Assembly (NCBI GenBank): GCA_037138355.1
Contig: JBAXIL010000003.1
Span: 13,065 to 77,064 of the forward strand
Origin: a bacterium
Lineage (GTDB): Bacteria > Oederibacteriota > PGYV01 > Palsa-1178
DNA length: 64,000 nt
Direction of reading: 5' to 3'
Shown: in pieces, positions 9,877 through 61,037 of the stretch
Numbering within the stretch: position 1 is the stretch's first letter
Layout: every line of letters begins with the position of its first letter
Notes under the pieces: generated by a model
The model's database searches: none
The model's input: only the letters and a program-made list of their open reading frames with translations
What the model was told of the DNA's origin: nothing
Made by a program: the position numbers and the translations under genes

Positions 9877-9952
9877 AAATCCTCCTTTTGTAGCCAAAGC
9901 CTAAACCCCAGTGGCATTTCTGCCACTTAGGGCATAAGTTATTAGCCAAAAA

Positions 9953-11245: not shown

Positions 11246-11405
11246 TTCACTTTCTCCTTTTTTTATTTTTGTATTTTTAAATTTCAATTTTTTTATATTT
11301 TCTTTCTCCTAACTTTTTTCTCCTTTCTTTATTTTTTGCTTTCGCATGAAATCATCTTTTACCCAAATAACATACTCCTGAATTTTTCTCATTTTTTGGC
11401 TCCTC

Positions 11406-11876: not shown

Positions 11877-12117
11877 TTTGTCACTCCTTTTCTATATATT
11901 GTCTATCGCCTTTGTCGGCAAGATAAATATAACAAAGTCCATAGATTTTGTCAACAAGTATTTTAAGATATTTTGAAGTATTTTATATGCATTAAAAGTC
12001 TATGGCAGCATGTATTAAATGACATTATATATAATAAAACAATATTTTTTCTGTATTGCTCATCAATTCATTCAATAATATATGTTATACTAATTCATAA
12101 ATTCATAGGAGTATTAA

Positions 12118-12690
12118 ATGAAAAATAAAATTTTACTTAATGTATGCTGTGCACCTGATGCAACACATACTATCAATGCTCTCCGCGAAGAAGGTTTTGA
12201 ACCTGTGACATTTTTTTATAATCCAAATATACATCCAAAAAATGAATATTATAAACGCGTGGAAGATATGAAAAAACTTGCAGCACACACACACACAGAA
12301 AATATAGAAGACCTTGCTTATGATATTGAGGAATGGTTTAGTTTATGTAAACCATTTGCCAAAGAACCTGAACGGGGAAAACGCTGTGAAGTTTGTTTTG
12401 ATATGAGAATGGACAAAAGCGCAGAAAAAGCCAAAGAACTTGGAATTGAGATATTTGCTACCACCCTTACTATCTCTCCACATAAAGATACTGCTCTCAT
12501 CAACAAGCTTGGAAATAATGCTGCAAAAAAATATGGAATTAAATATTATGAATCAAATTTCAAGAAAAAAGATGGTTTTAAAAAATCAATCGTATTATCA
12601 AAAGAACACGACTTATATAGACAGGACTACTGCGGATGTTCATATTCATTACTTGATAGATTAAAACAGAAACGAAAAGATATTATTTAA
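12118..12690 (+). CDS. queH: Epoxyqueuosine reductase QueH (DUF208 family).
   Basis: LLNVCCAPDAT and CEVCF...YCGCSYS cysteine motifs characteristic of QueH. 190 aa. AGGAG RBS. Confidence 0.8.
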   Translation: MKNKILLNVCCAPDATHTINALREEGFEPVTFFYNPNIHPKNEYYKRVEDMKKLAAHTHTENIEDLAYDIEEWFSLCKPFAKEPERGKRCEVCFDMRMDKSAEKAKELGIEIFATTLTISPHKDTALINKLGNNAAKKYGIKYYESNFKKKDGFKKSIVLSKEHDLYRQDYCGCSYSLLDRLKQKRKDII

Positions 12691-20300: not shown

Positions 20301-20455
20301 GGATAATATACTATAACTGACACAGTTGGAAAATCTACATTTGGCATTAAATCCCACGGAAGACTTGAGTAGCCGAGCCAACCAAGTGTAATAATTGATA
20401 AAACTATCATTACAACAAATACAGGCTTTTTTATGGCTAATCCTGCTATATTCAT
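17345..20455 (-). CDS. RND family multidrug efflux transporter (AcrB/HAE1-like), copy 2, a paralog of 12683..15784.
   Basis: 1036 aa. Colinear similarity to copy 1 throughout (e.g. MNIAGLAIKKPVFVVMIV vs MNISELAIKRPIFVIMIV). 12-TM RND architecture. Confidence 0.95.
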   Translation of the reverse strand: MNIAGLAIKKPVFVVMIVLSIITLGWLGYSSLPWDLMPNVDFPTVSVIVYYPGASAEEMETIVAKPLEDAFATLEGLDKVTSSCREGLAMINIAFTLGTDVKFAEIKVRDKVASTKPILPTDMLEPIIQKFSFSDIPIQFMSLSGKKQSSDLRELLEDDIKPQLERIPGVASINIFGGQKKIVKVEVNKALLLAKGITTSQITNAINARNLNYPVGTVEGTEKNITVRIVGEFQNVDDIANMPLTSNTGKMLRIKDIAKVSFTLEDETVKVRVNQVPAVMFSVLKQSGSNSVKVAADVMKQVKEIQKTLPSDIKLASAGDTTTGIKRSVEGILENIIIGAILAILIVWLFLGNFRSAIITAVALPNSIIGSFFIMMIAGFSINTITLLSLSLAVGLLIDDSIVVRENIFRHIEAGMSPKEAAEVGTNEVSLAVISTTLSIMAVFLPISFLSGIIGQFFKQFGLTVAFALAISLLDAFTTAPMLSAYWYKKEDKKEKKGLLKAAYAVSDKWNEFYNDMAKWYGEILEWALNHKKTVIASAVGLFIASFFIVPFLGKSFMNSDRGMFSANIQTYSGAPLEKTSQYIAELETFIANEKDIDSYFVMAGADMGGTAASNIGSLLVSMKPLNKRKITTDNEAQKVRDFVNKSKLDKYINVNIVSGMGGGDDSYMPVLISLTGDDLRVLENLSGQIKKIVQETPGAADADVSLKPGLPEVVLKVDPIKSEKMGISTAEIGGLMRTLMQGTKITNYKKAEKQYDITMQMDKTNRRKVDDLKNLVITTKTGKKIPLSSVVDFKYSSGPSEIRRENKVRIVKVSANVAPGASIGMVNSKIKAAIEKDIKFPKGYSYTFGGQSKEFASIGIEMGKAMLLAILFMYMILASLYNSFVQPLYIMVAVPLAMIGAFLALLLTGYNLDLFGFIGMLMVLGLVAKNGILLLDFTNKMRAQGMSMREALLHAGPVRLRPILMTTFAMIFGMLPIAMSLGEGSKGREGLATVVIGGLLTSTFLTLVVVPVVYEYFETRILKKAQQKQKLNEIK

Positions 20456-20513
20456 ACCAATCTCCTTATTATTAGCTTGAAACCGCGATGCTTAAATATT
20501 GCCGCAACGCCGC

Positions 20514-21443
20514 TTATTTGCCGTTTTTTATTTTTAAATTTTGTTTTGAGTTTCCGTTATCTACTATGGCCCCTTCAAAAAGCCTAAAATTTCCGTCAGT
20601 AATTACATTGTCGCCATCTGCTAATAAGCCATCTACTTCAATATTGTCATTAATTCTAAATCCTGTAATTACTTTTACCTGAGAAGCTTTTCCATTTCTG
20701 TTTACATAAACATATGCTCCATCTTCTCCTAAAAGAACAGCTTTTTCTGGAACAACATAACTTTCTTTATTTTCAGTTAATATATCTACATTTACAGACA
20801 TTCCTATTTTTAAAATTTTTCCTTTATTAGCCGCTTTTGCTACTACCGTCCCTGCCATAATATCCTTATCTACAACTGGTGGAACAGAAGCCACAATTGC
20901 ATTTAATGATATGGTCTTGTCATTGGCATAATATATCTGAGCACTTTGTCCTTTTTGAACTTTTAATAAATCATCTTGTCCAAGATTAAAAACTACCTTA
21001 ATTTTATTTTCATTAGCCACTTCAGCCACAGGCATTTGTGGAGATACTGTATCACCCTTGTCCATATAATAAAGTTTTGTAATCATACCTGACACAGGAG
21101 CCTTCACAGGTGCCAGTTCAAAAGTGGCACCTACTATATCGCGGTCTATGTAAGCAATAATATCACCACGCTTAACCATCTGTCCTTCTACTGTATTATT
21201 TTTAGCAAACTTTCCAGCCACTTGAGGATATACCTTCACCTGTGGATCTCCTTCAAGTATTCCTTGAACCGAAAGTACATGTGGGACATTTTGCTTTACA
21301 AGTTTCACATCAGAAATATTAAAGACTACTTCTTTTTGCTTTTTTAAACCATTTGTTACAGAAGTCCCTATCCTATAAATAATAAGAGCAGCTATAACAA
21401 TGCCCAACAAAATTAAAATTCTCTTTACAAGGTTCCTATTCAT
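20514..21443 (-). CDS. RND efflux periplasmic adaptor (MFP), copy 2.
   Basis: TM anchor plus a lipoyl/beta-barrel region (IIAYIDRDIVGATFELAPVKAPVSGMI) paralogous to copy 1. Confidence 0.85.
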   Translation of the reverse strand: MNRNLVKRILILLGIVIAALIIYRIGTSVTNGLKKQKEVVFNISDVKLVKQNVPHVLSVQGILEGDPQVKVYPQVAGKFAKNNTVEGQMVKRGDIIAYIDRDIVGATFELAPVKAPVSGMITKLYYMDKGDTVSPQMPVAEVANENKIKVVFNLGQDDLLKVQKGQSAQIYYANDKTISLNAIVASVPPVVDKDIMAGTVVAKAANKGKILKIGMSVNVDILTENKESYVVPEKAVLLGEDGAYVYVNRNGKASQVKVITGFRINDNIEVDGLLADGDNVITDGNFRLFEGAIVDNGNSKQNLKIKNGK

Positions 21444-24466: not shown

Positions 24467-26089
24467 TTACATATTATCTTTTACTATTTTTTTCTTAACT
24501 CCACTTGATGCCAATATCACATGATAAGCAGATAAGGCTGGCATTTCTAAAGTGAATGTATTATTAATTATTTTGTCTATATCCTGTCTCCGTGTTATTT
24601 TAGCCTGACTTAACTTATCAAAGCCATAAGCCTTTCCTGTTTGATATATTTGGTCCGATTTGATTACAATTCTAACCATTGTTGTATTTATTAAATCTTT
24701 ATTTATGATTATGATATGAAGATTTGTTTCGTCGTTACCTTCTATTGAAGCATAAGTTGTTATTTTTGCTACATCAGAAGTATCTGCTTTTATATTTGTA
24801 TCACCATACTTGCCGCTATTTCCGTCATAATTTCTGTATAATCTAAAACCTGCCAAAGTATATGCTCCAAGTTCTGCCATCCAATAATTAGCCATATACA
24901 CTCCATATTTACCAAATATTCCCAATACATCTGCCTCTGCAATACCGCCCGATGGATGATAACCTGCTCCATATTCATATTCCGTAAAAGCAAGCTTGGT
25001 TCCTGGATAATATTTATCAATCATTTCATTTAGCTTTGGAATTAAGCGTATAGGACAATGTCCTGACGCGCATATCCAACTTGTTTCAATATAATTTGGA
25101 TCCCATAAAGACCTCGGGGCTTGAACTCTCGCCTCTGCTGTTTCTTCCGCCACACCTGCGGCCTGTGTGAATACTATTCTTTTTCCATTGGTTGAAGCTT
25201 CTGGATACCAGTGAACATCAAGCGCATCCAGCAAACGCATTCCTTTTGCTTTTGAGGCTTCATTTAACTTTTCTAAATAATACGCCAGATACCAACCGTA
25301 AACATAATAAGGTTTAATGTAATCAGGAGCATCCTGAAAAGTTCTGAATCCATTAAAACCATATGAGGCTGGTCCGTAGATTTCGGCGCTTGGATCTATT
25401 TTTTTCACAGCGCTTGCCGCATCAATAGAAAGCTGAACATACTCTTGTGCCCCAACTTTATTTTGGTGCAACCTTGGATGTGTGGTGGACCAAATATCAG
25501 GTTCATTATCAAGTGAATAACCCTTAACACCTGTTGACGTATCTGCTTTTCCGTATTTATTCACCAGAAAATTTACTTCTTCATCTACATAAACAAACCC
25601 ATCATTTTTATCAGGTTCTAATGATAATTCTTTTCCTTTAGTAAATATTACTTTTGCCCATCTGTCAGATGGTGCTATTTCTTTTACTCCAACAGGTCCA
25701 TTCTTATCTTTTGACACATAACCAGCAAGAGGTAGAGTTATTATAGAATACGCATTTAATGTAAGTGATTTATCGTGAAATGTAGTCAATACAGCACCAG
25801 CTTTATCTTGATCACCTGTCACATTTGCCCAATCTGCCAAATAATTATCAGAAGATTGCTGCCAATCACTACCAGCATTTGAAGCATTATTTTCCCAATT
25901 GTAACCAGTCATTCTATTACCACCTAAACGCCTCGCCGTGTAATTTGTATCCCTCGCAATATCTTGATTGACACCGTATATATAAGGAGAGATTTTTGTT
26001 CTGTCTTTTGATGTATCAATTGTTACATCAACAGCAAAAAGCAATGAAGCATTCAGAAATAATAGTAAGCCAGTCAGTATCCTTTTCAC
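24467..26089 (-). CDS. Secreted glycoside hydrolase, clan GH-A TIM-barrel. Family uncertain, possibly GH44-like.
   Basis: Signal peptide. RLGGNRMTGYNWENNASNAG block. NEP acid/base motif (YSLDNEPDIW) and a TEYE-type nucleophile motif (LAFTEYEYG), as in clan GH-A retaining glycosidases. Confidence 0.55.
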   Translation of the reverse strand: MKRILTGLLLFLNASLLFAVDVTIDTSKDRTKISPYIYGVNQDIARDTNYTARRLGGNRMTGYNWENNASNAGSDWQQSSDNYLADWANVTGDQDKAGAVLTTFHDKSLTLNAYSIITLPLAGYVSKDKNGPVGVKEIAPSDRWAKVIFTKGKELSLEPDKNDGFVYVDEEVNFLVNKYGKADTSTGVKGYSLDNEPDIWSTTHPRLHQNKVGAQEYVQLSIDAASAVKKIDPSAEIYGPASYGFNGFRTFQDAPDYIKPYYVYGWYLAYYLEKLNEASKAKGMRLLDALDVHWYPEASTNGKRIVFTQAAGVAEETAEARVQAPRSLWDPNYIETSWICASGHCPIRLIPKLNEMIDKYYPGTKLAFTEYEYGAGYHPSGGIAEADVLGIFGKYGVYMANYWMAELGAYTLAGFRLYRNYDGNSGKYGDTNIKADTSDVAKITTYASIEGNDETNLHIIIINKDLINTTMVRIVIKSDQIYQTGKAYGFDKLSQAKITRRQDIDKIINNTFTLEMPALSAYHVILASSGVKKKIVKDNM

Positions 26090-33852: not shown

Positions 33853-34476
33853 TTGAAAAAAACTACTTTTTTGAGCTTATTTGGTGTATTGTTGCTATCT
33901 TCCCTATTCTTAATCTCAGGTTGTGGTACAGATGTAAAAAGAGCAAGAAAAGATGCAGCTCTATTAAATAGCTTTGAAACATTACAATCTGAACTCTCCA
34001 TAGGTGACTTTAACTTAGACACAAACGGATATGTTAATTTAGAACAAATAAAGAAATATGCTTCGCAAGGTAAGTTCTCAGCTAAAGCGGTTTTTTCCGT
34101 ACCTGTAGATTTTCTCACTACAACACAGGCTGCTAAAGCCAAAACATGGATTTCTTCCTTATCTATGGGTATTAATACTCTTACAAAACTAAAAACAACG
34201 GATTGGCAATATTATAAGAAATTTTCTATTGATATATATGTAGCCGATCCGACAGCACCAGATATTTTCATAAAGTTAGTAGATATGTACGGAAATGAGT
34301 ATTTAACACAAAGAGTTCTTAAAAACGGAAGAAACAAACTTGAGATAATTTTAGAAGATGTAAAAAATTCCAGAGTAAGTATATCTGCAATTACATCATT
34401 TTCAATATATATGGATACAATAAACCAACCAAAAGATATCACACTTTATCTTGATAATATAAGATTGGTTTTATAA
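33853..34476 (+). CDS. Hypothetical lipoprotein (207 aa, TTG start).
   Basis: Lipobox LFLISGC following an n/h-region. GGAGGA RBS. A 5-nt gap to the next gene suggests co-transcription. Confidence 0.55.
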   Translation: MKKTTFLSLFGVLLLSSLFLISGCGTDVKRARKDAALLNSFETLQSELSIGDFNLDTNGYVNLEQIKKYASQGKFSAKAVFSVPVDFLTTTQAAKAKTWISSLSMGINTLTKLKTTDWQYYKKFSIDIYVADPTAPDIFIKLVDMYGNEYLTQRVLKNGRNKLEIILEDVKNSRVSISAITSFSIYMDTINQPKDITLYLDNIRLVL

Positions 34477-34481
34477 GTTTT

Positions 34482-35351
34482 ATGAAATCAATCGGTGTAC
34501 TTTTTGACCTACTCAGGGTTAAACAGTGGACAAAAAATCTTTTAATTTACGCCGCCCTTGTTTTTACCAGCAATCTTTTTAATCCTATTTATTTTCGCAG
34601 TGTTACTATAGGATTTTTTCTTCTTTGTTTTGCGGCAAGCTCTCTTTATATCTTTAACGACTTAGCTGATTACGAATCAGACCGACTTCACCCCCAAAAG
34701 AGAAATAGACCTATTGCCTCAAATAAAGTTAATAAAATTTTTGCGTTGAGCTTAGCCATTCTTTTAATGTCATTTTCCTTAATTGGTGCTTATTTTCTTA
34801 ACTTTAGTTTTTTCATCCTAATTATATGCTATCTCACTATGACTACACTTTATACTTTATTTTTAAAACATATTGTTATAGTTGATGTCTTCATATTATC
34901 TATAGGTTTCGTTTTAAGAGCGATTGCAGGTGCCCTTGTGTTATCTGTTTCCATATCACCTTGGTTATTAATTTGTACCCTTTTATTGGCACTCTTTTTG
35001 GCTTTAGCAAAAAGAAGAAACGAACTCACCATACCAGATGCTCACAAACACAGAAAAATTTTAGAAGAATACTCCATACCACTTTTGGATGAAATGATAT
35101 CAGTAGTTACAGCTTCTACAGTTATTGCCTATTCGCTTTATACCTTTTATTCTCCAACAGCAGTCAAACATAGCTATCTTATGCTAACCATACCTTTTGT
35201 ATTATACGGAATTTTCAGATATTTGTATTTAATACACAAAAAAAATATGGGCGGAAGTCCTGAAGCAATTCTTCTTAAAGATTTACCAATAATGATAAAT
35301 GTAATTCTTTTTGTCTTGACCACAATAATAATTGTTTATTTTGTTAAATGA
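34482..35351 (+). CDS. UbiA-family prenyltransferase, most similar in motif to decaprenyl-phosphate phosphoribosyltransferase (DPPR synthase) class.
   Basis: About 8 TM helices. First Asp-rich motif NDLADYESDRLHPQKRNRPIASNKV (cf. NDxxDxExDRxHPxKRxRPIAxG of DPPR synthases). Second DxxxD-like region later. 289 aa. Confidence 0.75.
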   Translation: MKSIGVLFDLLRVKQWTKNLLIYAALVFTSNLFNPIYFRSVTIGFFLLCFAASSLYIFNDLADYESDRLHPQKRNRPIASNKVNKIFALSLAILLMSFSLIGAYFLNFSFFILIICYLTMTTLYTLFLKHIVIVDVFILSIGFVLRAIAGALVLSVSISPWLLICTLLLALFLALAKRRNELTIPDAHKHRKILEEYSIPLLDEMISVVTASTVIAYSLYTFYSPTAVKHSYLMLTIPFVLYGIFRYLYLIHKKNMGGSPEAILLKDLPIMINVILFVLTTIIIVYFVK

Positions 35352-36286
35352 TTCTTGCAGTTACTTTAAACTCCACCATAGACATTGTAATCCCTGTAAA
35401 TAATCTAAAACCTGGCTCTGTTTCTCGAACTAAAGCCATATACACCTACCCCGGTGGTAAAGCAACTAATGTTGCCCGCGCCTTAAAACAACTCGGTGCC
35501 ACTGCCCACGCTATTGGATTTGTAGGTATTAGGGATTCTCGCGAAACAGAACATTTTCTTAAACACCACGGCGTTACTTCGTCTTATATCCCATGTACTG
35601 GTTCAAATAGAATATGCCTTCTTTTAACCGAAACTAAGGATGTCCCGAGAGAAACGGTAATAAACAGCGAATCTGACATAGACATAACAAAAAAAGAAAT
35701 AGACATATTTTTACAACAACTTAAAACACTATCAATTAAAGCTTCACACATTATCTTTTCAGGCAGTTTACCCTTATCATTGCCATCAAACTTTTATGAA
35801 ACAGCCTTAAAAGTGGTAGATAAAAATTGTATCTCCATACTTGACACTTCGGCCAAATATCTATTTCATGGTATAAAAGCATCCCCTAAAATAATAAAAC
35901 AGAATCTAAGTGAGCTTGAATCAGCTTTTCATGTAAAACTAACAAATCCATCCAAAATTAAAAAATTTGTATCAGCACTTTCAATAAAATATAAGGTACC
36001 CATAATTATAGTAACTATGGATAAAAAGGGTTCGCTTGTGTTTGATAATGGAAGTTTTTATTTTTATCCAGCCATAAAAGTTAAAAAAATTATATCTCCT
36101 GTTGGTTCTGGTGATGCTTTTTCGGCAGGTTTAGTTTATGGATTATCAAAAGGATATAGCGTAAAAAACTCATGTAAATGGGCTGCCTCAGCTGCTTCTG
36201 CAAATTTGTCGCACTTGGGTTCGTGTTTTATTAGTAGGAAGAATGTATTAAAATATCTTGCCAATGCTAAAATTACTAATTATTGA
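35348..36286 (+). CDS. PfkB-family sugar kinase of the FruK/LacC (1-phosphofructokinase / tagatose-6-phosphate kinase) subfamily.
   Basis: N-terminal ILAVTLNSTIDIV...YPGGKATNVARAL. C-terminal anion hole PVGSGDAFSAGLVYG. ATGA overlap with the upstream gene indicates translational coupling. Confidence 0.78.
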   Translation: MILAVTLNSTIDIVIPVNNLKPGSVSRTKAIYTYPGGKATNVARALKQLGATAHAIGFVGIRDSRETEHFLKHHGVTSSYIPCTGSNRICLLLTETKDVPRETVINSESDIDITKKEIDIFLQQLKTLSIKASHIIFSGSLPLSLPSNFYETALKVVDKNCISILDTSAKYLFHGIKASPKIIKQNLSELESAFHVKLTNPSKIKKFVSALSIKYKVPIIIVTMDKKGSLVFDNGSFYFYPAIKVKKIISPVGSGDAFSAGLVYGLSKGYSVKNSCKWAASAASANLSHLGSCFISRKNVLKYLANAKITNY

Positions 36287-42557: not shown

Positions 42558-42650
42558 GATTTCCTTTTTCTTGTATGAGTATTTTAAGTAGATTAAATAT
42601 TTTTTTGAAAATATAACTTGAATGATTATATAAGTGTTTTGGCTTTTGTC

Positions 42651-42683
42651 AATAAAAGAAAAAGAGCGGCAATGTCCGCTCTC
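42651..42683 (-). terminator. Intrinsic terminator downstream of the small HTH protein gene (minus strand).
   Basis: Minus strand reads GAGCGG-ACATTG-CCGCTC followed by TTTTTCTTTTATT. Confidence 0.65.
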
Positions 42684-42704
42684 CTTACAAAATTGAATAT
42701 AATA

Positions 42705-42902
42705 TTATTGTTTAATTGATTTTAGTTTTAGCACGCCAGAGTGAACTAATGACATAATAGTAACTGTAGATACGCCTGTTTTTAAAGAGACATCCATAAC
42801 CGAAGCCATAGGATTCTTATTTAAATATTCTTTTACCTTTTTAATATCAGGTAAATTATTTTCCTGTATGAATTTCCTAACTTTATCCCTGTCATTATTC
42901 AT
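42705..42902 (-). CDS. Small hypothetical protein (65 aa) with a possible helix-turn-helix (SVMDVSLKTGVSTVTIMSLVHSG).
   Basis: Last gene before a terminator at the end of the long minus-strand operon. No family recognised. Confidence 0.4.
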   Translation of the reverse strand: MNNDRDKVRKFIQENNLPDIKKVKEYLNKNPMASVMDVSLKTGVSTVTIMSLVHSGVLKLKSIKQ

Positions 42903-42949
42903 TATTTACCCTTTCAAATTATTTGAGCCTTGTTGTTCATTACAAAAAC

Positions 42950-43510
42950 TTAAAATATTTTCAAATGCTCAATTAATATCTTAACACCTATTCCTATCAA
43001 AATCAACCCTCCAAGAATTTCAGCACGCCTACCAAACATTTGACCTACTTTTTTACCAATTGCCCCACCTAAAAGCGTAAATGCAAATGAAACCGATCCA
43101 ATTAAAACAACTGGTATTAACATATCATATTTCATTACAGAAAAACTTACACCCACTGCCAGTGCATCTATGCTCGTTGCAAAAGACAACCATATGAGTG
43201 CTTTTCCAGTAGTATAATCACTTTTTCCCTCACTGTTTTTTTCTAAACCCTCTTTTAACATTTTAGTTCCTATTAGTACAAGCAAACCAAAGGCAATCCA
43301 ATGATCAAAGTTTTTTATCAGTGCTATAAAACTATTTCCAGCCAACCACCCAAATAAAGTCATGAGTGACTGGAAAATACCAAATAATAAACCCATAGAT
43401 AAAAGATTATTTAACTTAAAACCCTTTCCCGTTGTGCCTGCTGATATTGCTACCGCAAAACAATCCATAGCAAGTCCAATTGAAATAAGAATCATTGTAA
43501 GTAAGTCCAT
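42950..43510 (-). CDS. mntP: Manganese efflux pump MntP (DUF204/LysE-like).
   Basis: MDLLTMILISIGLAMDCFAVAISAG... with the duplicated DxxAV(G) motif (SIDALAVGVSF). 6 TM. 186 aa. Confidence 0.85.
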   Translation of the reverse strand: MDLLTMILISIGLAMDCFAVAISAGTTGKGFKLNNLLSMGLLFGIFQSLMTLFGWLAGNSFIALIKNFDHWIAFGLLVLIGTKMLKEGLEKNSEGKSDYTTGKALIWLSFATSIDALAVGVSFSVMKYDMLIPVVLIGSVSFAFTLLGGAIGKKVGQMFGRRAEILGGLILIGIGVKILIEHLKIF

Positions 43511-43525
43511 TAATACCTCTCTTCA

Positions 43526-44479
43526 TTAATTGGCGAGTTTCACCGTCTTCGAAAGTTCGCCTAAATCATTTGTATTAAGCGAGCGTTTTCCGCTATCACG
43601 CTTTCTTGACATGCGTGATAAAAATGTCCCTGGCCCTATTTCTACAAATGTATTAACTGCATTTTTTAACATAGTTTCCAAACTTAAATCTATTCGTGAA
43701 GGTTTGAAAATATAATCAGTAAACTTCTCTTTGATTTCCTGTACATTATCATAATAATTTCCTGTTGTTTGGCAAATTATACGCTGCTTTGGTTTGTCCA
43801 TAGGTATTTTTTTAAAAACTTCCTTTAATCTATCTGCTATTGGCTTTAATATAGAAAAACAAGCCGACTCTTCATGTGGTATATTAATAACTGATCCGTT
43901 TAATTTTTTAAATAATTCAGTTAATTTATCCTTATCCTTAGTCTCACAAACTATAATGGTAGAATCTTTTCCATTGTATGATACTATTTCTGCCTTAACT
44001 GTGTTTTTCAACTCTGAGATAACCTTTTCAACCTGCATTACCTGCACAGTATTTATGAGCAAATGTTGAAAAAAACCTTTACCCACTTCATCACTAATCA
44101 TTTGTTTTTTAACAAAAAGAAAATCAATGGCATTATCAAAAGATATTGCTTCGGAACACACAAGAGCCATTAGCTCTCCAGCTTTATACCCAAACATTTG
44201 TTCAGGCATAACTTTGTAATCTTTTAAAATATCAAAAATACCTCTCTGATAAACAGCATTTATTATGATTCCATTTTCTTCAAGCATAAGCTCTTCCACA
44301 GGTCCTAAAAATGAGAGTTTATTTATCTTAAAATCACTATATTTTTTTTCTACTTTATCGTAGTACTGCCTCATAATCCAAGATGAATCATATGCTTTTT
44401 TGCCGAGGCTCACATACTGATATCCAGCGCCAGTAAACATATAACCTATAGCTGCCAAAATATACCTCCTAAAATGCAC
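43526..44479 (-). CDS. FabD-fold (malonyl-CoA:ACP transacylase-like) protein with a substituted active site: the GHSxG nucleophile elbow reads GYKAG.
   Basis: Colinear with FabD. FTGAGYQ vs FPGQGSQ. MFGYKAGELMALVCSEAISFDNAI vs MAGHSLGEYSALVCAGVIDFADAV. EIGPGTFLSRM vs EVGPGKVLTGL. Ser92-equivalent is Lys, Arg117-equivalent is Lys. Confidence 0.65.
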   Translation of the reverse strand: MHFRRYILAAIGYMFTGAGYQYVSLGKKAYDSSWIMRQYYDKVEKKYSDFKINKLSFLGPVEELMLEENGIIINAVYQRGIFDILKDYKVMPEQMFGYKAGELMALVCSEAISFDNAIDFLFVKKQMISDEVGKGFFQHLLINTVQVMQVEKVISELKNTVKAEIVSYNGKDSTIIVCETKDKDKLTELFKKLNGSVINIPHEESACFSILKPIADRLKEVFKKIPMDKPKQRIICQTTGNYYDNVQEIKEKFTDYIFKPSRIDLSLETMLKNAVNTFVEIGPGTFLSRMSRKRDSGKRSLNTNDLGELSKTVKLAN

Positions 44480-44482
44480 CTT

Positions 44483-45160
44483 CTATTTTTTAGTTATGAC
44501 TACCATTCCAAAATCACCTAAAGGAAGATTTATCTTTTCTAATACATCATCCGCAAATGGAAATAAATAACCAACCGTAATAGGCATATAAAGCGTATAT
44601 TTTACAGTATATTTATAACTGATATCCTTAACTCCCAAAGCTTCCTTTATTATGGTTGTTATTTCAGTCCCTGATAAAGGTGCCGAATCATTATAAACAG
44701 CCCTACGCTCTCTCACTTTAAATATTTTTGAAAGAGAGTTTTTATTCAGAAAACCTATTGCCACTTTTTTTGCTGCTACCCGAAAAGCTTCTTTTAAAGC
44801 GGCTTTTTTATCAAACGCAAATCCAAAAGTGTTCATAAATATAACATTATCAAAAGAACCGTTTCCAAGAGGCAATTTTTCATACGGACACCTAATAAGC
44901 TGTTCATTTTTTATAGTGGATTTCTGTCGAGCTTTTTTTATAAGTTCTTCAACTGGTTCTACTCCTACTGCTTCAAGACCTAAATCACACAAATATTCAA
45001 GGTTTCTTCCTGTGCCGCAGCCTATTTCTAATACACGCTCACTTCTTTTAAAACGAATACTATTAATAAGCAATTCTTTTTCTTTGTCATCTGTGTACAT
45101 CCCTGCAGGTGACAAAAACCATCTCTCATAATTTGAAACTATATCGCGTTCTACAACCAT
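44483..45160 (-). CDS. Class I SAM-dependent methyltransferase (Methyltransf_11/UbiE-like).
   Basis: VLEIGCGTGRNLEYL motif I. GSFDNVIFMNTF post-II. 225 aa. Confidence 0.8.
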   Translation of the reverse strand: MVVERDIVSNYERWFLSPAGMYTDDKEKELLINSIRFKRSERVLEIGCGTGRNLEYLCDLGLEAVGVEPVEELIKKARQKSTIKNEQLIRCPYEKLPLGNGSFDNVIFMNTFGFAFDKKAALKEAFRVAAKKVAIGFLNKNSLSKIFKVRERRAVYNDSAPLSGTEITTIIKEALGVKDISYKYTVKYTLYMPITVGYLFPFADDVLEKINLPLGDFGMVVITKK

Positions 45161-45174
45161 GTATTGTCTCCTGT

Positions 45175-46140
45175 CTATTTTGTTTCCTTAGCCCAGTTAA
45201 TAACATCTCTCAGTCCGTCTTTAAATTGTATCATTGGTTTCCATTTCAACAATTTGGCAGTTTTTGATATATCCGCTTGCATGTGCCTCTGATCGCCAGG
45301 CCGTGCAGTTTTATAAATTACTTTATTTGTTTTTCTGGTTTTTCCAAAACTTTTCAAAGTAATGTCTATTAATTGATTAACCGATACCCTTATACCAGAA
45401 CCTAAATTAAATACTTCATTAAAAGATTTTTTATTATCTATGGCACCAATCCAAGCTTTTGCAACATCACTAATGTGCACATAGTCACGAGATTGTAAAC
45501 CATCACCAAATACTGTAACTGCTTCACCACGCAGTACATTACCTATAAATATTGAAACAACTCCCTGATAAGGATTAGTCAGCGACTGTCTGCGCCCATA
45601 TACATTAAACATTCTAAAAGCAGTAGTATTTAATTTAAACCCCATATCTGTTCTTAAACCTGTGGCTAATACATATCTCTCGCCTGCATATTTTGTAATA
45701 CCATAATATGCAATCGGCCTGGTGCCCATTGTTTCTTTTACTGGTATAGCATCAGGTACTCCATACGAGGTCATGGAAGAAGCATATAATAACCTATTCA
45801 CTTTATACTTTATCGCATAATTAATAATATTTATAGTTCCCAAGACATTTGTATTGAGATCCGCTGCTGGGTCATCAAATGATTTAATTGTTGAAGCACA
45901 ACCAGCTATGTGAAAAATAGCATCTATTTTATTTTTAAATACTTTGTCCAAATCTTTTGGATTCCTAACATCTCCTTTGATAAAGAGAGCTTTGGAATTA
46001 ATATTTTCCTTAAGACCAGTGGAAAGATTATCAACTACAATAACCTTATAACCACTATCTAATAAAGCATCTGTCATATTTGAACCAATAAAACCCGCCC
46101 CACCTGTAACCAATACTGTTTTTTCCATGTTTGCCTCCAT
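45175..46140 (-). CDS. NAD-dependent nucleotide-sugar epimerase (GalE-like SDR; UDP-hexose or UDP-pentose 4-epimerase).
   Basis: VLVTGGAGFIGSN Rossmann. YxxxK (YGITKYAGE). 321 aa. Confidence 0.85.
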   Translation of the reverse strand: MEANMEKTVLVTGGAGFIGSNMTDALLDSGYKVIVVDNLSTGLKENINSKALFIKGDVRNPKDLDKVFKNKIDAIFHIAGCASTIKSFDDPAADLNTNVLGTINIINYAIKYKVNRLLYASSMTSYGVPDAIPVKETMGTRPIAYYGITKYAGERYVLATGLRTDMGFKLNTTAFRMFNVYGRRQSLTNPYQGVVSIFIGNVLRGEAVTVFGDGLQSRDYVHISDVAKAWIGAIDNKKSFNEVFNLGSGIRVSVNQLIDITLKSFGKTRKTNKVIYKTARPGDQRHMQADISKTAKLLKWKPMIQFKDGLRDVINWAKETK

Positions 46141-46160
46141 ATATTAGTAAATATATTAAC

Positions 46161-46859
46161 TCATAACTTAAGTTTTAACTTCCATACTATCCACGCGGCT
46201 TCTAAAATCACTTTTCTTGACATTTTGGAAGACCCTGAGTGGCGGTCAACAAATATTATTGGTATCTCTTTAATTTTGAATGATCTTTCCCATGCTTTAT
46301 AGTGCATTTCTATCTGAAAAGCATAACCATCAGAATGTATTTTATCGAGATCAATTGCTTTTAAAACACTACTTTTATAACACTTAAAACCACTTGTTAA
46401 ATCAGTAAGCGGAAGACCTGTTATTATTTTAGCATATAAGTTCGCAAGTTTTGAAAGCACAAGTCGCCTAAGCGGCCAGTTAACTACTGATAGTCCGTTG
46501 ATATACCTTGAACCTATTACCAAATCATTGGTTTTAAGTGTTTCTATAAAAACAGGTAGATAATTTGGATCATGAGAAAAATCAGCATCCATTTCAAATA
46601 TAATGTCATATTTTTTGGCTAAAGCATACTTAAATCCTTCAACATAAGCAGTTCCCAAACCGAGTTTTTTTGCTCTTTCTATGAGCTTTACTCTTTTATT
46701 TTTTTCCATTATTACTTTTACTGCTGCTCCAGTACCATCAGGAGATTTGTCATCCACAATAAGTATGTCAGCAGCAGGCAGAGTTTTCATTATCATTGGA
46801 ATAAGTTTTTTTATATTATCTTTTTCATTAAAAGTAGGTATTACTATAAGTATTCTCAT
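46161..46859 (-). CDS. GT2-family polyprenol-phosphate glycosyltransferase (Dpm1/ArnC/CsbB-like).
   Basis: ILIVIPTFNEKDNI. DDKSPDGTG. DxD (FEMDADFSHDP). 232 aa soluble GT-A domain, typical of Und-P-sugar synthases. Confidence 0.82.
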   Translation of the reverse strand: MRILIVIPTFNEKDNIKKLIPMIMKTLPAADILIVDDKSPDGTGAAVKVIMEKNKRVKLIERAKKLGLGTAYVEGFKYALAKKYDIIFEMDADFSHDPNYLPVFIETLKTNDLVIGSRYINGLSVVNWPLRRLVLSKLANLYAKIITGLPLTDLTSGFKCYKSSVLKAIDLDKIHSDGYAFQIEMHYKAWERSFKIKEIPIIFVDRHSGSSKMSRKVILEAAWIVWKLKLKL

Positions 46860-49150
46860 TTATCACCTTTATGTATTTTCCTTTCTCTAAAATATATTAT
46901 CACATAAAATAATATACCAATTAAGGTCAAAAGTAAACCTAAGTAAAACCCATCCTTTGAATAATAAAGTTCTATGTCATGCGTTCCGGTTTTTAAAGGT
47001 ATCCCCATAAAAGCATAATTTACATTATAAATTTTATTTAATTTATTATCAACTTTAGCTTTCCACTCAGGATAGTAAGAATTCTTTACCACCAACATTC
47101 CATCTTTTTCTGTTTCAACAATCATCTTAATCCTATTAGGAGTATATGATTGAATGCCTATCTTATATGATAAAAGATCTGGTGACGGCATCAAATCAAT
47201 GTCATCTTTTATCAAAACTCCCTTAAAATCATAAGTCCCACTTTTCATGTAATTTAATATCTCTTCATTTGTATTATACTTAAATATTTTATCAGTAAAA
47301 ACGATTCTTGGAGAAACAGCTTTGTTACTATAAACTTTAACCTTTCCATCTAACAACTTATATAAACCTGGTATATTTATGTCCTCAGACATTAAGAAAT
47401 ACTTAATATTAAAATAACTATCTGCAGCCAAAATATTGAAAAGTCCTGCTTTCTCAAGTGCTAAATATGATTTAGGTATTAAACCATGTATCCCTTTTAA
47501 CCCTTCTATATCATAGTATATATTTCTATTAGGCGACCAAGAGAACGAGAAATCTGTCATCCTATAGATATCTTTATCCTGCTTTATTGCTATGGCTACT
47601 GGATCAATAACGGGTACATAATTTTTGTATTCCTCATAAATAATAAATTTATTATCAATTCTATGCATATCCACAAAGTTAATAGATGCCAATATTATTG
47701 ATACGAGAAAAATATTCTTTATTTTTTTTGAAATAAAAGCATAAATAATAGCAAGACCAGCTGCTGACACAAAAATAAAATATACTACATCCTGTCTTAT
47801 GCCAGCTAATATATTTCCTAATATTTGCGGTGATATCTGTGTTTTCTTAATAGTCATATATAAGCTACTGACTATCTGTGTTAAGTTATTGCCAATAAAC
47901 ATTATAGATAAGGTAATAAATATAATTCCCATAATGACTGAAATACCAGTCAGAATCTTTAACATAGTATTTTTACTTGCCTGTCCAAAATTAAATATAT
48001 TATTAAGTCCTACTGCTGACAGTGCCATAATAAAAAAAGTAAATACATATAGGAACCGTGATGGATTTCTAAATTGATTAAAAACTGGAATATAATAAAA
48101 TAGCTTGTATATTGGAGTAAAACCACCAAACGAAAGAATAAGAAATAATATAGAGGAAAAAGTCAAAAACTTAGCAAAAGAAGAGAGTTTTTTATCTACA
48201 AAAGCAAAAGGAACAAGCAAAAATGAAATGATTCCAAAATAATAGGTGGTTAGATTAAACGGCATAAACCCATAATAGTTTTCTGCCCTTAAACCGAAAA
48301 ATCGCGGAAGAAAAAATGTCAGTGTTTCAATTGGGTGAAATGACCATGAAACAAAATCACTATAAGTAAAACTCCCTCTCCAAGAATAATCAGTATAAGG
48401 AATAGAAGGTATAAGCTGGAGGGACGCATATATAATAATAGCCAAGGTGCTCAACATAAACAATCCAATTGGTTTTATATAATTAATTTTATTTCTGGCT
48501 TCTATCCAAATTTTGTAAATAGCAAGCATAAGAACTCCCAGATATGTATAGGCCATGATCTGCATACCAGTTGCAAGTATTTGCAAAGCCATAAGCACTG
48601 CTGCATTTAAAAATGGAAGCATTTTTTTATTATCAAAACCCCTTGCTGTAAAATAAAATATAAATGGTATAAGTGCTCCTGCCTTAATATTATTCCAGTG
48701 ACCAACATAAATATACGAAAGCATGAATCCACTTATGGTGAAAGCAACAGCAGAGAAAAAAGCCGCCTCTCTTCTGATACTAAACTGTCTCAAAAATAAA
48801 AACATACCAAGAAATGAAACCAACAGATGAATTAATAGATCAATAGTGTAGGTAAACTGCAGGGGAATAGGTAAAAACATAAACAATAAATCAGTCGGGT
48901 AATAATATAAAAGACTTGAAGAGCCTATCAGTGGCATTCCAAAAAACAAATGTGGCATCCAAAGTGGCAAATCGTGATATTTTACAGCCATTTCCTGAGC
49001 AAATAATTTGAATGGTAAATAAATAGTAAAAAAATCAGTTCCAAATAATATTTTTCCTGGCTGAAGTGCCCCATTAAAAAAAATTAATCCTGTTATAAAA
49101 AGAAATAAACCAATTAACCAGTTTTGTATCTTCTTATTGTCCATCAGCAA
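46856..49150 (-). CDS. YfhO-family GT-C membrane glycosyltransferase (polytopic N-domain plus C-terminal extracytoplasmic domain and final TM).
   Basis: 764 aa, more than 12 TM. C-terminal signature ...NSYYPEWKAKVDNK...VNYAFMGIPLKTGTHDIELYY...LLLTLIGILFYVIIYF matches the YfhO family ending. ATGA overlap with the downstream GT2 and a 17-nt overlap with the upstream UXS-like gene. Confidence 0.72.
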   Translation of the reverse strand: MLMDNKKIQNWLIGLFLFITGLIFFNGALQPGKILFGTDFFTIYLPFKLFAQEMAVKYHDLPLWMPHLFFGMPLIGSSSLLYYYPTDLLFMFLPIPLQFTYTIDLLIHLLVSFLGMFLFLRQFSIRREAAFFSAVAFTISGFMLSYIYVGHWNNIKAGALIPFIFYFTARGFDNKKMLPFLNAAVLMALQILATGMQIMAYTYLGVLMLAIYKIWIEARNKINYIKPIGLFMLSTLAIIIYASLQLIPSIPYTDYSWRGSFTYSDFVSWSFHPIETLTFFLPRFFGLRAENYYGFMPFNLTTYYFGIISFLLVPFAFVDKKLSSFAKFLTFSSILFLILSFGGFTPIYKLFYYIPVFNQFRNPSRFLYVFTFFIMALSAVGLNNIFNFGQASKNTMLKILTGISVIMGIIFITLSIMFIGNNLTQIVSSLYMTIKKTQISPQILGNILAGIRQDVVYFIFVSAAGLAIIYAFISKKIKNIFLVSIILASINFVDMHRIDNKFIIYEEYKNYVPVIDPVAIAIKQDKDIYRMTDFSFSWSPNRNIYYDIEGLKGIHGLIPKSYLALEKAGLFNILAADSYFNIKYFLMSEDINIPGLYKLLDGKVKVYSNKAVSPRIVFTDKIFKYNTNEEILNYMKSGTYDFKGVLIKDDIDLMPSPDLLSYKIGIQSYTPNRIKMIVETEKDGMLVVKNSYYPEWKAKVDNKLNKIYNVNYAFMGIPLKTGTHDIELYYSKDGFYLGLLLTLIGILFYVIIYFRERKIHKGDK

Positions 49151-50075
49151 ACCATTTAATGGTATGGCTTAACCCTTCACGAAGTTTTATTCTTGGTTCC
49201 CAACCAAGCAGTTTTTTTGCCTTTGTTATATCAGGTTTTCTGCGAGTGGGATCATCAGTAGGTAATTTTTTATACACTATTTTTGACTTTGAACCCGTCA
49301 TTTCCTTTATTATTACGGCTGCTTCCTTCACCGTAAACTCATCTGGGTTGCCTATGTTAATAACTTCTCCTGCTAATCCATCTTTAAGCATTGCCGTAAT
49401 TAAACCTTTAACTTGATCAGAAACATAACAAAAACTTCTTGTCTGAGAACCATCCCCATATATAGTCAAATCCAGATTATGCTGGGCCTGCCAAATAAAG
49501 TTTGATATAACTCTTCCATCATCTTTTTGTAACCGTGGTCCATAAGTGTTAAATATCCTAATTATTCTGGCATCTACCTTATGTTTTCTAACAAATTCCA
49601 TAGTTAGAGCCTCAGCAAATCTTTTGGCTTCATCATAACAAGACCTTATACCCACTGGATTTACATTTCCCCAGTAAGTTTCTTTTTGCGGGTGTTCTTT
49701 TGGATCTCCATATGTTTCAGAAGTAGAAGTAATTAAATAACGCGCCTTTTTTGCTCTACAAAATTCAAGTATATTATATGTACCTAAAGAATTTGTAAGC
49801 AAGGTTTCTATAGACTTTGCCTGATAGTACGGTGGTGAAGCATATGAAGCCAAATGAAATACATAATCCACGGCACCTTTTATTTTTATTGTTTTTTGAA
49901 CATCATGTTTAATAAATTTAAAATTTCTATTTTTAATAATTGTTTTTAGATTTGACATTCTACCAGTTCCTAAATTATCAAGGCATATTACCCTGTATCC
50001 TTTTTCAATAAGGTTTTCACATAAATGTGAACCTATAAACCCTGCTCCACCAGCCACAACAACAGTTTTATTCAT
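49134..50075 (-). CDS. UDP-glucuronate decarboxylase (UDP-xylose synthase, UXS/ArnA-C-terminal-like SDR).
   Basis: VVVAGGAGFIGSHLCENLIEKGYRVICLDNLGTGR. YDEAKR catalytic motif. 313 aa. Closely resembles eukaryotic/bacterial UXS. Confidence 0.8.
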   Translation of the reverse strand: MNKTVVVAGGAGFIGSHLCENLIEKGYRVICLDNLGTGRMSNLKTIIKNRNFKFIKHDVQKTIKIKGAVDYVFHLASYASPPYYQAKSIETLLTNSLGTYNILEFCRAKKARYLITSTSETYGDPKEHPQKETYWGNVNPVGIRSCYDEAKRFAEALTMEFVRKHKVDARIIRIFNTYGPRLQKDDGRVISNFIWQAQHNLDLTIYGDGSQTRSFCYVSDQVKGLITAMLKDGLAGEVINIGNPDEFTVKEAAVIIKEMTGSKSKIVYKKLPTDDPTRRKPDITKAKKLLGWEPRIKLREGLSHTIKWFADGQ

Positions 50076-59714: not shown

Positions 59715-61037
59715 TTATGCTTTATAATATTTTTTGTAATACATTAACGGATTAGGTTTTGTTTCGCACTCAGTTCCTATTAATATCTTAGATATCCTTT
59801 TTTCTCGTCTGGCTTCATGTAATCTTGTAATAATTTTATCCCTCAATTCATAAGGGTTCATAGGATTTATATAAACTTTTGTGCCCCCTTCAAAACCAGC
59901 CGGTGTATTTACCCTGAGCTTTATAAGAATATGTAAAGGCATTACATCTATGGAATCTTTTGGAGTATAGTACCACTCTTCATTAGTTGCTATCTGATTT
60001 GTGATTGCATGATGAACTGCATGAACTATATCCGAGAAGCCGCGTAATTCTTTGTCTGACATTTCGTATGGATAAACAGCTTCACTTTTTGAAAAAATTC
60101 CTATAGTTGGGAACCTGTGTCCTATGTCAGAAAATGCAATTGCATAATCATTTTCCGCCACCACCAGATTAAAATATGTCGCCATATTTGCTCCCATCTC
60201 ATTATATATGTTCGGGTTTTTTCTGATTAGATTTATTTCTCTTTCTATAGAAACGCCCCACTCATCTATAGCCACAAGTTGCTTATGAAGATGATCAAAA
60301 GATGCCCCTGCAGGTTTTAACCAATTTTGAAATATAGAAACATATCTGGCATATTTATTGTATGTATAAATATCCACAAGACCCTTAATAGTGAATTTTA
60401 GATATTGATAGTGTTCTTTTGGTGACATTTCACCTGAACTACACAGTTGAGTTTCAAATTCGGCATCTTTAATATAATGACTCCTGCCTACAATGAGTTC
60501 GTGTCCTCCAGCAAAAAAAGCATCCGACATATCAATCTTTTCTTTTTCTGAGACTTGCGTTGGATCCCTTCCCAAAAGTTGTAATTTCATATTGATTATA
60601 TGCATTACATGTTCATATCCAGCTTTGTCTGCAAGATAATCGTCTTTTCTTTTCTTTACATCTTCTGGATACTGATATCCAAAATTCTTTTTCCAATATT
60701 CCATAGTAACTATTTCAAAAAGGTTTGGAACGCGTCTAAATTCCGCCGTGGTCTGTCTAAGTATTCCTGGTTTTAAACCTTTGATTGCTACATACTTTCC
60801 ACCTATTTTTACAAGTCGTTCTTTTTCAGGTGGTGTATTTTCATATTTTTCCTCACAAAAATTACAATAATCTTCTTTTTTCTTTTTCTCTATTTTTTTT
60901 GCAGTAGTCGGTATAGAGTTTGTAATCGGTTTGCTCGCCCTTCCAGGAACTGTCCAAACTTCTGTTCCTGTAAATGGGTTAATTTGTTTTATAGTACCAT
61001 CTTGCATTCTGATAAAAAACTGATTGTAATTTGACAT
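59715..61037 (-). CDS. GalT-like HIT-superfamily nucleotidyltransferase (galactose-1-phosphate uridylyltransferase family).
   Basis: N-terminal INPFTGTEVWTVPGRASKP... with CxxC (CNFCEE). HxHxQ active-site motif (FDHLHKQLV). 440 aa. Confidence 0.65.
   Translation of the reverse strand: MSNYNQFFIRMQDGTIKQINPFTGTEVWTVPGRASKPITNSIPTTAKKIEKKKKEDYCNFCEEKYENTPPEKERLVKIGGKYVAIKGLKPGILRQTTAEFRRVPNLFEIVTMEYWKKNFGYQYPEDVKKRKDDYLADKAGYEHVMHIINMKLQLLGRDPTQVSEKEKIDMSDAFFAGGHELIVGRSHYIKDAEFETQLCSSGEMSPKEHYQYLKFTIKGLVDIYTYNKYARYVSIFQNWLKPAGASFDHLHKQLVAIDEWGVSIEREINLIRKNPNIYNEMGANMATYFNLVVAENDYAIAFSDIGHRFPTIGIFSKSEAVYPYEMSDKELRGFSDIVHAVHHAITNQIATNEEWYYTPKDSIDVMPLHILIKLRVNTPAGFEGGTKVYINPMNPYELRDKIITRLHEARREKRISKILIGTECETKPNPLMYYKKYYKA

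Follow-up and report, generated by a model that had tools for sequence, protein, structure and literature searches.

A lineage-restricted gene block that joins a UDP-glucuronate decarboxylase to a YfhO-type GT-C and a Dpm1-type glycosyltransferase and may serve lipid-linked sugar transfer

Introduction

What does a bacterium do with a UDP-glucuronate decarboxylase gene whose end overlaps the start of a gene for a membrane glycosyltransferase? The question is raised by a string of minus-strand genes at positions 42705-50075 of a 64-kb stretch of contig JBAXIL010000003.1, which was analysed at its full length and is called the window here. In the order of transcription, the string encodes a UDP-glucuronate decarboxylase (UXS), a YfhO-type GT-C, a GT2 glycosyltransferase, a GalE-like 4-epimerase (Epi), a methyltransferase (MT), a FabD-like protein, an MntP-family membrane protein and a 65-amino-acid protein. 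An earlier note, made from the sequence without database searches, had read these genes as one operon for a lipid-linked pentose glycosylation system with accessory genes. Here, we identify the first six as a block that is conserved in related genomes, and we consider it moderately probable that the block serves to attach a sugar (xylose or arabinose, probably) to a membrane lipid carrier and to pass it on to the cell surface.

The pairing of a GT-C with a GT2 is the hallmark of multi-component systems in which a GT-A enzyme makes a C55-P-monosaccharide, a flippase that is often encoded elsewhere turns it over, and the GT-C transfers the sugar to an extracytoplasmic acceptor (PMC8035078). CsbB/GtlA-GtcA-YfhO/GtlB carries out such transmembrane glycosylation of teichoic acids in Bacillus, Staphylococcus and Listeria (PMC8035078). 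The Pgf system of Streptococcus mutans consists of the GT2 PgfS, the YfhO-like GT-C proteins PgfM1 and PgfM2 and the 4-epimerase PgfE (PMC5856776).

Results

The coordinates of all eight minus-strand open reading frames at 42705-50075 were checked, and all eight are present (Table 1). Two junctions described in the earlier note can likewise be read directly from the sequence. UXS and GT-C overlap by 17 nt with a TTG start at 49150 (11 nt if GT-C starts at the ATG at 49144, the start used by public gene callers, which give 762 amino acids for GT-C, 317 for the epimerase and 310 for the FabD-like protein), and GT-C ends and GT2 begins within one ATGA. The other gaps, from GT2/Epi to that between MntP and the 65-amino-acid gene, measure 20, 14, 3, 15 and 47 nt. 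A GAGGAG Shine-Dalgarno sequence stands in front of UXS. At the 3' end stands a terminator-like hairpin at 42686..42659 (stem of 11 pairs, 5 of them G-C; loop of 6 nt; T-rich tail), the sole minus-strand terminator-like match between 42000 and 54500. The tight packing is weak evidence for an operon because the unrelated housekeeping genes around the string are equally tight: the whole stretch from 36.3 to 61 kb lies on the minus strand, and hisS, pdxA, ksgA, glmS, rlmI and nadE are spaced 1-75 nt. Given these co-directional surroundings and promoter-like matches at chance level in the region (67 found, 61.5 expected), the transcript may start upstream of UXS. Co-expression is indicated instead by the overlap of the UXS stop with the GT-C start, which is found in the window and retained in at least ten related loci.

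Table 1. Positions of the genes and signals of the block in the window, and of two optional neighbours in related loci (aa, amino acids)
Feature	Sequence	Positions	Strand	Basis or remark
UDP-glucuronate decarboxylase (UXS), 313 aa	window	49134-50075	-	phmmer against PDB
YfhO-family GT-C membrane glycosyltransferase, 764 aa	window	46856-49150	-	Pfam YfhO, fold search
Dpm1/Ppm1-type polyprenyl-phosphate GT2, 232 aa	window	46161-46859	-	Pfam Glycos_transf_2, PDB search
GalE-like extended SDR 4-epimerase (Epi), 321 aa	window	45175-46140	-	Pfam Epimerase
Class I S-adenosylmethionine-dependent methyltransferase (MT), 225 aa	window	44483-45160	-	Pfam Methyltransf_11/25
FabD-fold protein without catalytic Ser/His dyad, 317 aa	window	43526-44479	-	AlphaFold2, Foldseek, alignment
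MntP-family membrane protein	window	42950-43510	-	Pfam Mntp; neighbour, not a conserved block member
65-aa protein (HTH65)	window	42705-42902	-	weak YvyF-like match; block membership uncertain
Terminator-like hairpin with T-run	window	42659..42686	-	closes the co-directional gene string
ThpR/LigT	L012	14072-14614		
ThpR/LigT	L013	13979-14515		
ThpR/LigT	L016	5777-6313		
ThpR/LigT	L037	1757-2296		
ThpR/LigT	L039	1036-1578		
ThpR/LigT	L017, L018, L020, L021, L026			
ThpR/LigT	L023	11164-11352		remnant
Radical SAM protein	L009	6909-8312		
Radical SAM protein	L010	7507-8907		
Radical SAM protein	L011	7551-8951		
Radical SAM protein	L014	5992-7359		
Radical SAM protein	L015	7484-8851		
Radical SAM protein	L021	2777-4171		

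The window is identical in sequence to metagenome contigs. A scan of one genome per species gave 20 related loci, which were viewed as 22-kb slices and come from metagenome-assembled genomes (MAGs) labelled FCPU426, Goldbacteria/Goldiibacteriota, 'Spirochaetia' or 'bacterium'. The order UXS-GT-C-GT2-Epi-(ThpR)-MT-FabD-like is kept in every one of them that is sufficiently complete, and three further loci from extra lookups (L037-L039) show the same order as far as the contig extends. The flanks vary. Upstream, rlmI is adjacent to UXS, absent, or 1-7 kb away, with genes for a B12-binding radical SAM protein, glyA or surface proteins in the gap; downstream of the FabD-like gene lie, depending on the locus, lipoproteins, toxin-antitoxin genes, sensor proteins, MntP or the 65-amino-acid gene. 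Because the six-gene order is constant while both flanks change, retention of the block goes beyond background synteny. The co-conservation proposed earlier thus applies to UXS, GT-C, GT2, Epi, MT and the FabD-like gene but does not extend to MntP. The member in brackets, a LigT/ThpR 2H phosphoesterase of 175-193 amino acids with two HxT motifs, lies between Epi and MT in about ten relatives; the window and the loci nearest to it no longer have it.

A B12-binding-domain radical SAM protein of ~460 amino acids is encoded upstream of UXS in six related loci and has no homologue in the window. Its gene stands directly beside UXS in L010, L011 and L015 and is separated from it by a methyltransferase gene in L009, by glyA in L014 and by ~2.6 kb in L021. 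Possibly it belongs to the block as an optional addition.

Within the lineage, the adjacency of GT-C and GT2 is conserved together with the ATGA overlap. Outside the lineage, it persists in GT-C relatives of 27-28% identity, which have a 57-60% identical GT2 immediately downstream, and within 8 kb of these distant pairs no UXS, epimerase, FabD-like gene or orthologous MT was found. By this comparison of sequences, the GT-C/GT2 pair is the old core, to which UXS and Epi are lineage-specific additions. A class I methyltransferase gene upstream of the distant pair in L031 was rejected as an MT orthologue (27% identity over 89 residues). Directly upstream of distant pairs there is also an MprF-type 'LPG_synthase_TM' gene (L029 6691-7617 and L031 1078-1938), a candidate flippase for those systems; an equivalent is absent from the block in the window.

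The four enzymes of the presumed glycosylation core were assigned by profile, PDB and fold searches. First, in a phmmer search of the PDB, UXS matched human UXS1 (4gll/2b69) with 330 bits (E=1e-97, residues 3-309); the next family reached 145 bits, dTDP-glucose dehydratases at most 109 and ArnA 80. Its score against TIGR01181 (156 bits) is well under the cut-off of 365. The motifs GGAGFIGSH, STSETYG, CYDEAKR and SQTRSF align column by column with UXS1 and contain the residues with active-site roles (GxxGxxG, Thr/Ser-Glu, Tyr-x3-Lys and Arg). The earlier assignment of this gene to UXS is borne out: the protein is a member of the UDP-glucuronate decarboxylase family and a predicted UDP-xylose synthase, with 69-88% identity among related loci. 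An RmlB-type dTDP-glucose 4,6-dehydratase is rejected on the same scores.

Second, the short, soluble GT2 of 232 amino acids belongs to the polyprenyl-phosphate type but not to the ArnC type, the two possibilities that the earlier note had left side by side. It scores 97.8 bits against Pfam Glycos_transf_2 and, in the PDB, 114 bits against the dolichyl-phosphate mannose synthase (DPMS) of Pyrococcus furiosus (5mlz), compared with 34 bits against ArnC structures; against the ArnC model NF007986 it reaches 39.3 bits, with a cut-off of 529, and it ends before any membrane helix, whereas ArnC has membrane helices at its C-terminus. Aligned to 5mlz, it retains equivalents of the D-A-D motif, H94, R117, R131 and S135. 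In PfDPMS, Arg117, Arg131 and Ser135 are acceptor-phosphate residues (PMC5526996). The protein also carries the DPMS motifs DADFSH and GYAFQ and is 39% identical to human DPM1. On these grounds, it is a predicted polyprenyl-phosphate sugar synthase of the Dpm1/Ppm1 type. The Dpm1-like family spans several donor sugars, including, by the names of NCBIfam models such as AglJ and PpgS, mannose as well as UDP-Glc, UDP-GlcNAc and UDP-GalNAc, so the donor sugar of the GT2 is not readable from its sequence. That it would load a pentose, as had been stated earlier, rests on gene context and not on the enzyme family.

Third, the epimerase scores 194.6 bits against Pfam Epimerase and 191.3 bits against TIGR01179 galE, below that model's cut-off of 262.3. 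Its best PDB match is the UDP-hexose 4-epimerase GalE of Thermotoga maritima (4zrm, 210 bits), followed by WbgU and WbpP, and the Ser-Tyr-Lys triad is present in the sequence (SSMTSYG, YGITKYAGE). Nearest solved relative and triad together uphold its description as a GalE-like short-chain dehydrogenase/reductase (SDR). Identity across related loci is 68-87%. The earlier proposal that it could act on UDP-xylose holds as far as the GalE-like family is concerned; an SDR of such systems can also act on the lipid-linked sugar in place of the UDP-sugar (PMC11127046).

Finally, the GT-C matches Pfam YfhO (PF09586) with 65.5 bits, above the cut-off of 28.5, over profile positions 755-835 only, that is, with its C-terminal ~80 amino acids. 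It also matches PTPS_related (35.4 bits, residues 86-432), a large membrane-protein family that we take to be in the same Pfam clan as YfhO. The NCBI record of the identical protein is named 'YfhO family protein'. Its AlphaFold2 model (pLDDT 87.9) consists of a multi-helix membrane domain, a beta-rich C-terminal domain (~500-730) and a terminal helix, and Foldseek retrieved AftD, ArnT, STT3/PglB and AftA, each with a probability of 1.0 and a modest TM-score; the family profile gave no match to PDB sequences at E<=1, so that the placement among solved structures comes from the fold search. G37 and D39 are invariant across the family right after the first helix, and the loop that carries D39 probably faces outward. 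Together, the Pfam score above the gathering threshold and the GT-C fold support the earlier description of the 764-amino-acid protein, which is, as judged by profile and model, a YfhO-type GT-C glycosyltransferase. Its identity across related loci drops to 38%.

Additional YfhO-like genes were seen in some relatives. L021 has a tandem second copy (7681-9996 and 9956-12283, 35% identity), L009 and L010 have distant copies (24-30%) after uvrD (18196-20646 and 18548-21019, respectively), and a lone second copy with 42% identity (L025 9980-12325) lies elsewhere in the genome that carries L012.

At its 3' end, the block closes with MT and the FabD-like gene, a lineage-specific pair of close neighbours; wherever a locus extends that far, MT directly precedes the FabD-like gene. 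The best NCBIfam match of MT is the DVU_1556 family (60.6 bits, cut-off 155), and in the PDB it matched only uncharacterised structural-genomics proteins. Its family is restricted to the lineage at identities of at least 41%; the next relatives, at 31-37%, stand in unrelated contexts, and no FabD-like or glycosylation genes were found around the nearest of them, in Pseudodesulfovibrio and Thermovibrio.

The FabD-like protein shares with FabD its length and two-subdomain fold. Its AlphaFold2 model (pLDDT 89) superimposes on FabD structures with TM-scores of 0.84-0.89 (0.88 for several of them) and root-mean-square deviations of 2.1-3.1 Å. It differs from FabD in being encoded beside methyltransferase and glycosylation genes rather than fab genes, and its scores are below the cut-offs of Pfam Acyl_transf_1 (28.1 bits, cut-off 32.7) and TIGR00128 (93.8, cut-off 260.9). 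Compared with E. coli FabD, the family has an invariant Lys in place of S92, Tyr or Phe in place of H91, Cys, Asn or Gly in place of H201, Ala or Thr in place of Q11 and Arg in place of Q250, and position R117 is Lys or Arg; a Glu-Glu motif and a C-terminal KLAN motif are new and invariant. The active-site substitution noticed earlier is thus real: the Ser/His dyad is gone, with Lys where Ser92 would be. Judged by these residues, the protein cannot be a malonyl-CoA:ACP transacylase, and the label 'ACP S-malonyltransferase' that it carries in public records is very likely wrong. An exhaustive HMMER search of 1.84 billion representative sequences found ~55 proteins at least 49% identical to it, and everything else was at most 29% identical.

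To describe selection, only the nonsynonymous and synonymous differences per site (pN and pS) were used, because synonymous saturation precluded dN/dS. All block genes have pN of 0.08-0.20 with saturated pS. Between the FabD-like gene and its orthologues in L007 and L008, nonsynonymous differences amount to 0.08-0.14 per site with synonymous sites saturated, and GlmS, UXS and the epimerase behave alike. A decaying pseudogene is rejected by a pN equal to that of GlmS and UXS, and the protein is, by this measure, under strong constraint. Our working guess is that it is a binding or scaffold partner of MT.

A second degenerate FabD, P0132 (L027 3351-4280 and L028 1232-2161), looks independent in origin: it is 28% identical to the FabD-like protein and carries GVGPG where FabD has GHSLG, although KLAN stands at its C-terminus too. 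It was found on short soil-metagenome contigs together with a HicA toxin gene and a small upstream open reading frame (probable HicAB) and a thioredoxin gene, a context that is uninformative.

The position after the FabD-like gene is taken by MntP (165.5 bits against Pfam Mntp) or its homologue in the window, L007, L008 and L023, and by other, mutually unrelated genes in the remaining loci. Contrary to the earlier view that it belongs to the system, its limitation to close relatives of the window marks MntP as an incidental recent insertion, unrelated to the block, and since it does not accompany the block elsewhere, it was rejected as a candidate for the flippase. The 65-amino-acid protein has no Pfam or PDB match and reaches 21.7 bits against TIGR03826 (cut-off 124); its homologues occupy the interval from the FabD-like gene to uvrD in L007-L012, L021 and L026, and in L020 as well, there on the other strand.

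Discussion

The pathway that we tentatively prefer for the four-gene core would run in five steps. UXS would decarboxylate UDP-glucuronate to UDP-xylose, as its family suggests. The GalE-like epimerase, to go by its context, may then turn UDP-xylose into UDP-L-arabinose, or else epimerise a lipid-linked sugar. The soluble GT2, which has the fold and the phosphate-binding residues for this reaction, would put the sugar on undecaprenyl phosphate at the inner membrane face. An unlinked flippase would carry the lipid-linked sugar outward, and the YfhO-type GT-C would pass it to a periplasmic acceptor, such as lipopolysaccharide, another glycan or a protein. That the cell is diderm and has a periplasm is indicated by the TolC-like OEP and OmpA genes of the window. 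Because UXS is translationally coupled to GT-C, and because the block encodes no sugar-nucleotide enzyme other than UXS and Epi, the most economical choice of donor is UDP-xylose or UDP-L-arabinose, its 4-epimer, and we infer that one of the two is used. The block has neither an ArnB nor a GtrA-type gene, as had been noted; the missing flippase is not unusual, as flippases are often encoded elsewhere in known systems (PMC8035078).

Several observations weigh against this pathway. First, neither a UDP-glucose 6-dehydrogenase nor a flippase turned up in the 64-kb window. Second, the GT2 is much nearer to the mannose and hexose enzymes Dpm1, Ppm1, AglJ and PpgS than to the pentose enzyme ArnC. 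Third, and this is the main argument, the distant GT-C/GT2 pairs have no UXS or epimerase within 8 kb, so that the donor could be a common hexose. Fourth, all related loci come from a single lineage that keeps the synteny of unrelated housekeeping genes too, which makes co-conservation weaker evidence than independent recurrence would be. Finally, about ten relatives have a ThpR/LigT gene that separates MT from Epi, a sign that the MT/FabD-like pair could be a module of its own.

This last point leads to the alternative that survives best, and which we regard as a serious possibility that falls a little short of probable: the locus would hold two merely syntenic modules, one of UXS, GT-C, GT2 and Epi for glycosylation and one of (ThpR), MT and the FabD-like gene for a housekeeping function, e.g., in RNA, cofactor or lipid metabolism. 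It is compatible with the pathway proposed for the four-gene core and concerns the extent of the system. Besides ThpR/LigT and its remnant in L023, it is favoured by the housekeeping genes in conserved synteny around the region (ksgA, glmS, rlmI, uvrD and a dGTPase gene), by MT relatives in unrelated contexts in Desulfovibrio and Thermovibrio and by the distant GT-C/GT2 pairs, which have no FabD-like gene and of which one has no more than a dissimilar methyltransferase gene upstream. On the other hand, MT and the FabD-like gene stay with the glycosylation genes in every sufficiently complete locus despite differing outer flanks, and in the window the gap between Epi and MT is only 14 nt and contains no terminator.

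A second alternative, rather unlikely in our estimate, concerns the sugar itself. GT-C and GT2 could be an ordinary polyprenyl-phosphate hexose system that uses undecaprenyl-phosphate-linked mannose or glucose, as Ppm1/Pmt or GtrB/GtrC do, in which case UXS and Epi would supply UDP-pentoses to unlinked glycosyltransferases and their adjacency would reflect shared regulation of envelope glycans. The DPMS signatures of the GT2, its scores and its identity to human DPM1 would fit such a system, as would the distant pairs that lack UXS and Epi nearby. However, the resemblance to Dpm1 does not fix the sugar in a family that also includes UDP-Glc, UDP-GlcNAc and UDP-GalNAc users. Moreover, UXS overlaps the GT-C start not only in the window, UXS and Epi bracket GT-C and GT2 in every locus, and the block contains no other glycosyltransferase that could use UDP-xylose or UDP-arabinose.

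The epimerase might also act on undecaprenyl-phosphate-linked xylose rather than on UDP-xylose, like ORF13 of Citrobacter youngae O2. The precedent is a three-component pentofuranose system for which genetic evidence shows that a GalE-like SDR decides between Ribf and Xylf as the pentose; its authors assign this step to the lipid-linked sugar (PMC11127046), and the window protein does fall under the GalE equivalog cut-off; but that precedent belongs to a pathway from phosphoribosyl pyrophosphate (PRPP) through a UbiA-type enzyme, not to a UDP-sugar/Dpm1-type pathway, and the closest solved relatives of the window epimerase are nucleotide-sugar 4-epimerases, and we consider this alternative improbable. 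Still less credence is due to the idea that the whole ancestral block of seven genes (UXS, GT-C, GT2, Epi, ThpR, MT and FabD-like) makes up one FCPU426/Goldbacteria-specific envelope-modification pathway, in which the lipid-linked pentose would be tailored, e.g., O-methylated. The FabD-fold protein with Lys for Ser would then have acquired another activity or binding role, perhaps by presenting an acyl or malonyl thioester or the lipid-linked sugar to MT; if true, the FabD fold would be put to a novel use beyond fatty-acid and polyketide synthesis.

How does the pathway proposed here, with a pentose as the sugar, compare with known systems? Like CsbB/YfhO, the block places a GT2 of the C55-P-monosaccharide type beside a YfhO-family GT-C that would act outside, and in neither case need the flippase be linked. 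Unlike CsbB/YfhO, the host is a member of a diderm candidate phylum, the GT2 is short and soluble, of the Dpm1 type and without membrane helices, the operon has dedicated UXS and epimerase genes, and the match of the GT-C to the YfhO profile is confined to the last 80 positions, with no more than 28% identity to relatives outside its lineage. With Pgf, the block shares a GT2, a GT-C and a GalE-like epimerase in one operon; PgfM1 and PgfM2 are the only NCBIfam matches of the GT-C, and PgfS is among those of the GT2. These scores, however, are far under the cut-offs (31-34 bits compared with 1400-1500 for the GT-C and 52 compared with 500 for the GT2), and Pgf glycosylates surface adhesins in a monoderm and has no UXS, MT or FabD-like protein. 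The Arn pathway, which transfers 4-amino-4-deoxy-L-arabinose to lipid A, has the same logic of UDP-glucuronate decarboxylation, a pentose on undecaprenyl phosphate and transfer by a periplasmic GT-C. It differs from the block, which has no aminotransferase, formyltransferase, deformylase or ArnE/F, the UXS of which scores 91 bits against the ArnA model compared with 330 against UXS1, the GT2 of which reaches 39 bits where ArnC has a cut-off of 529, and the GT-C of which is of the YfhO and not the ArnT/PMT_2 type. In three-component pentofuranose systems, too, a pentose is transferred from a polyprenyl-phosphate donor outside the cytoplasm and an auxiliary SDR epimerase sets the pentose, but there PRPP and a UbiA-type enzyme supply the donor, the sugars are furanoses, the flippase is of the MATE type and the GT-C belongs to GT136 (PMC11127046). 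Altogether, the block is a new combination of well-known parts that, by sequence scores, falls into none of the CsbB/YfhO, Pgf and Arn families.

In the literature, we found no description of a YfhO-type system fed by UXS and none of an undecaprenyl-phosphate-linked xylopyranose or arabinopyranose donor; the single match for 'UndP-Xyl' was xylofuranose made by the PRPP route. If the sugar is indeed a pentose, the product of the Dpm1-type enzyme would be a neutral pentopyranose, xylose or L-arabinose, linked to undecaprenyl phosphate and derived from a UDP-sugar, a route that we did not find described in the searchable literature. It would also extend the range of donors known for YfhO-type GT-C enzymes and offer a first handle on the cell-envelope chemistry of never-cultured phyla. 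The FabD-like protein matters irrespective of the sugar: its present label would mislead metabolic reconstructions of these MAGs, and it offers a clear example of a paralogue with strong conservation and a rewired catalytic site.

The window also contains, outside the block, a gene resembling those for decaprenylphosphoryl-5-phosphoribose synthases of the pentofuranose systems. It encodes a UbiA-family protein (34482-35351, plus strand) that scores 285 bits against NF008977, 'decaprenyl-phosphate phosphoribosyltransferase' (cut-off 234). This enzyme is the first of the PRPP-based lipid-linked pentofuranose pathways (PMC11127046), and the genome may thus make a second lipid-linked pentose donor. 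The gene is flanked by genes for a predicted lipoprotein of 207 amino acids with no family match (33853-34476, plus strand) and a PfkB-type hexose kinase (35348-36286, plus strand), and no GT-C gene adjoins it.

Other features of the window

A scan of the whole window gave no Rfam match; a Mn riboswitch in front of mntP and a glmS ribozyme are thus both absent. Just past the hairpin that ends the gene string, before uvrD/pcrA, there is a 12/12 match to the sigma-70 consensus (TTGACA-16-TATAAT) at 42652..42625 on the minus strand. Further genes on the minus strand encode a GH44 glycoside hydrolase (24467-26089) and a full-length DUF4921 protein (59715-61037, 601 bits).

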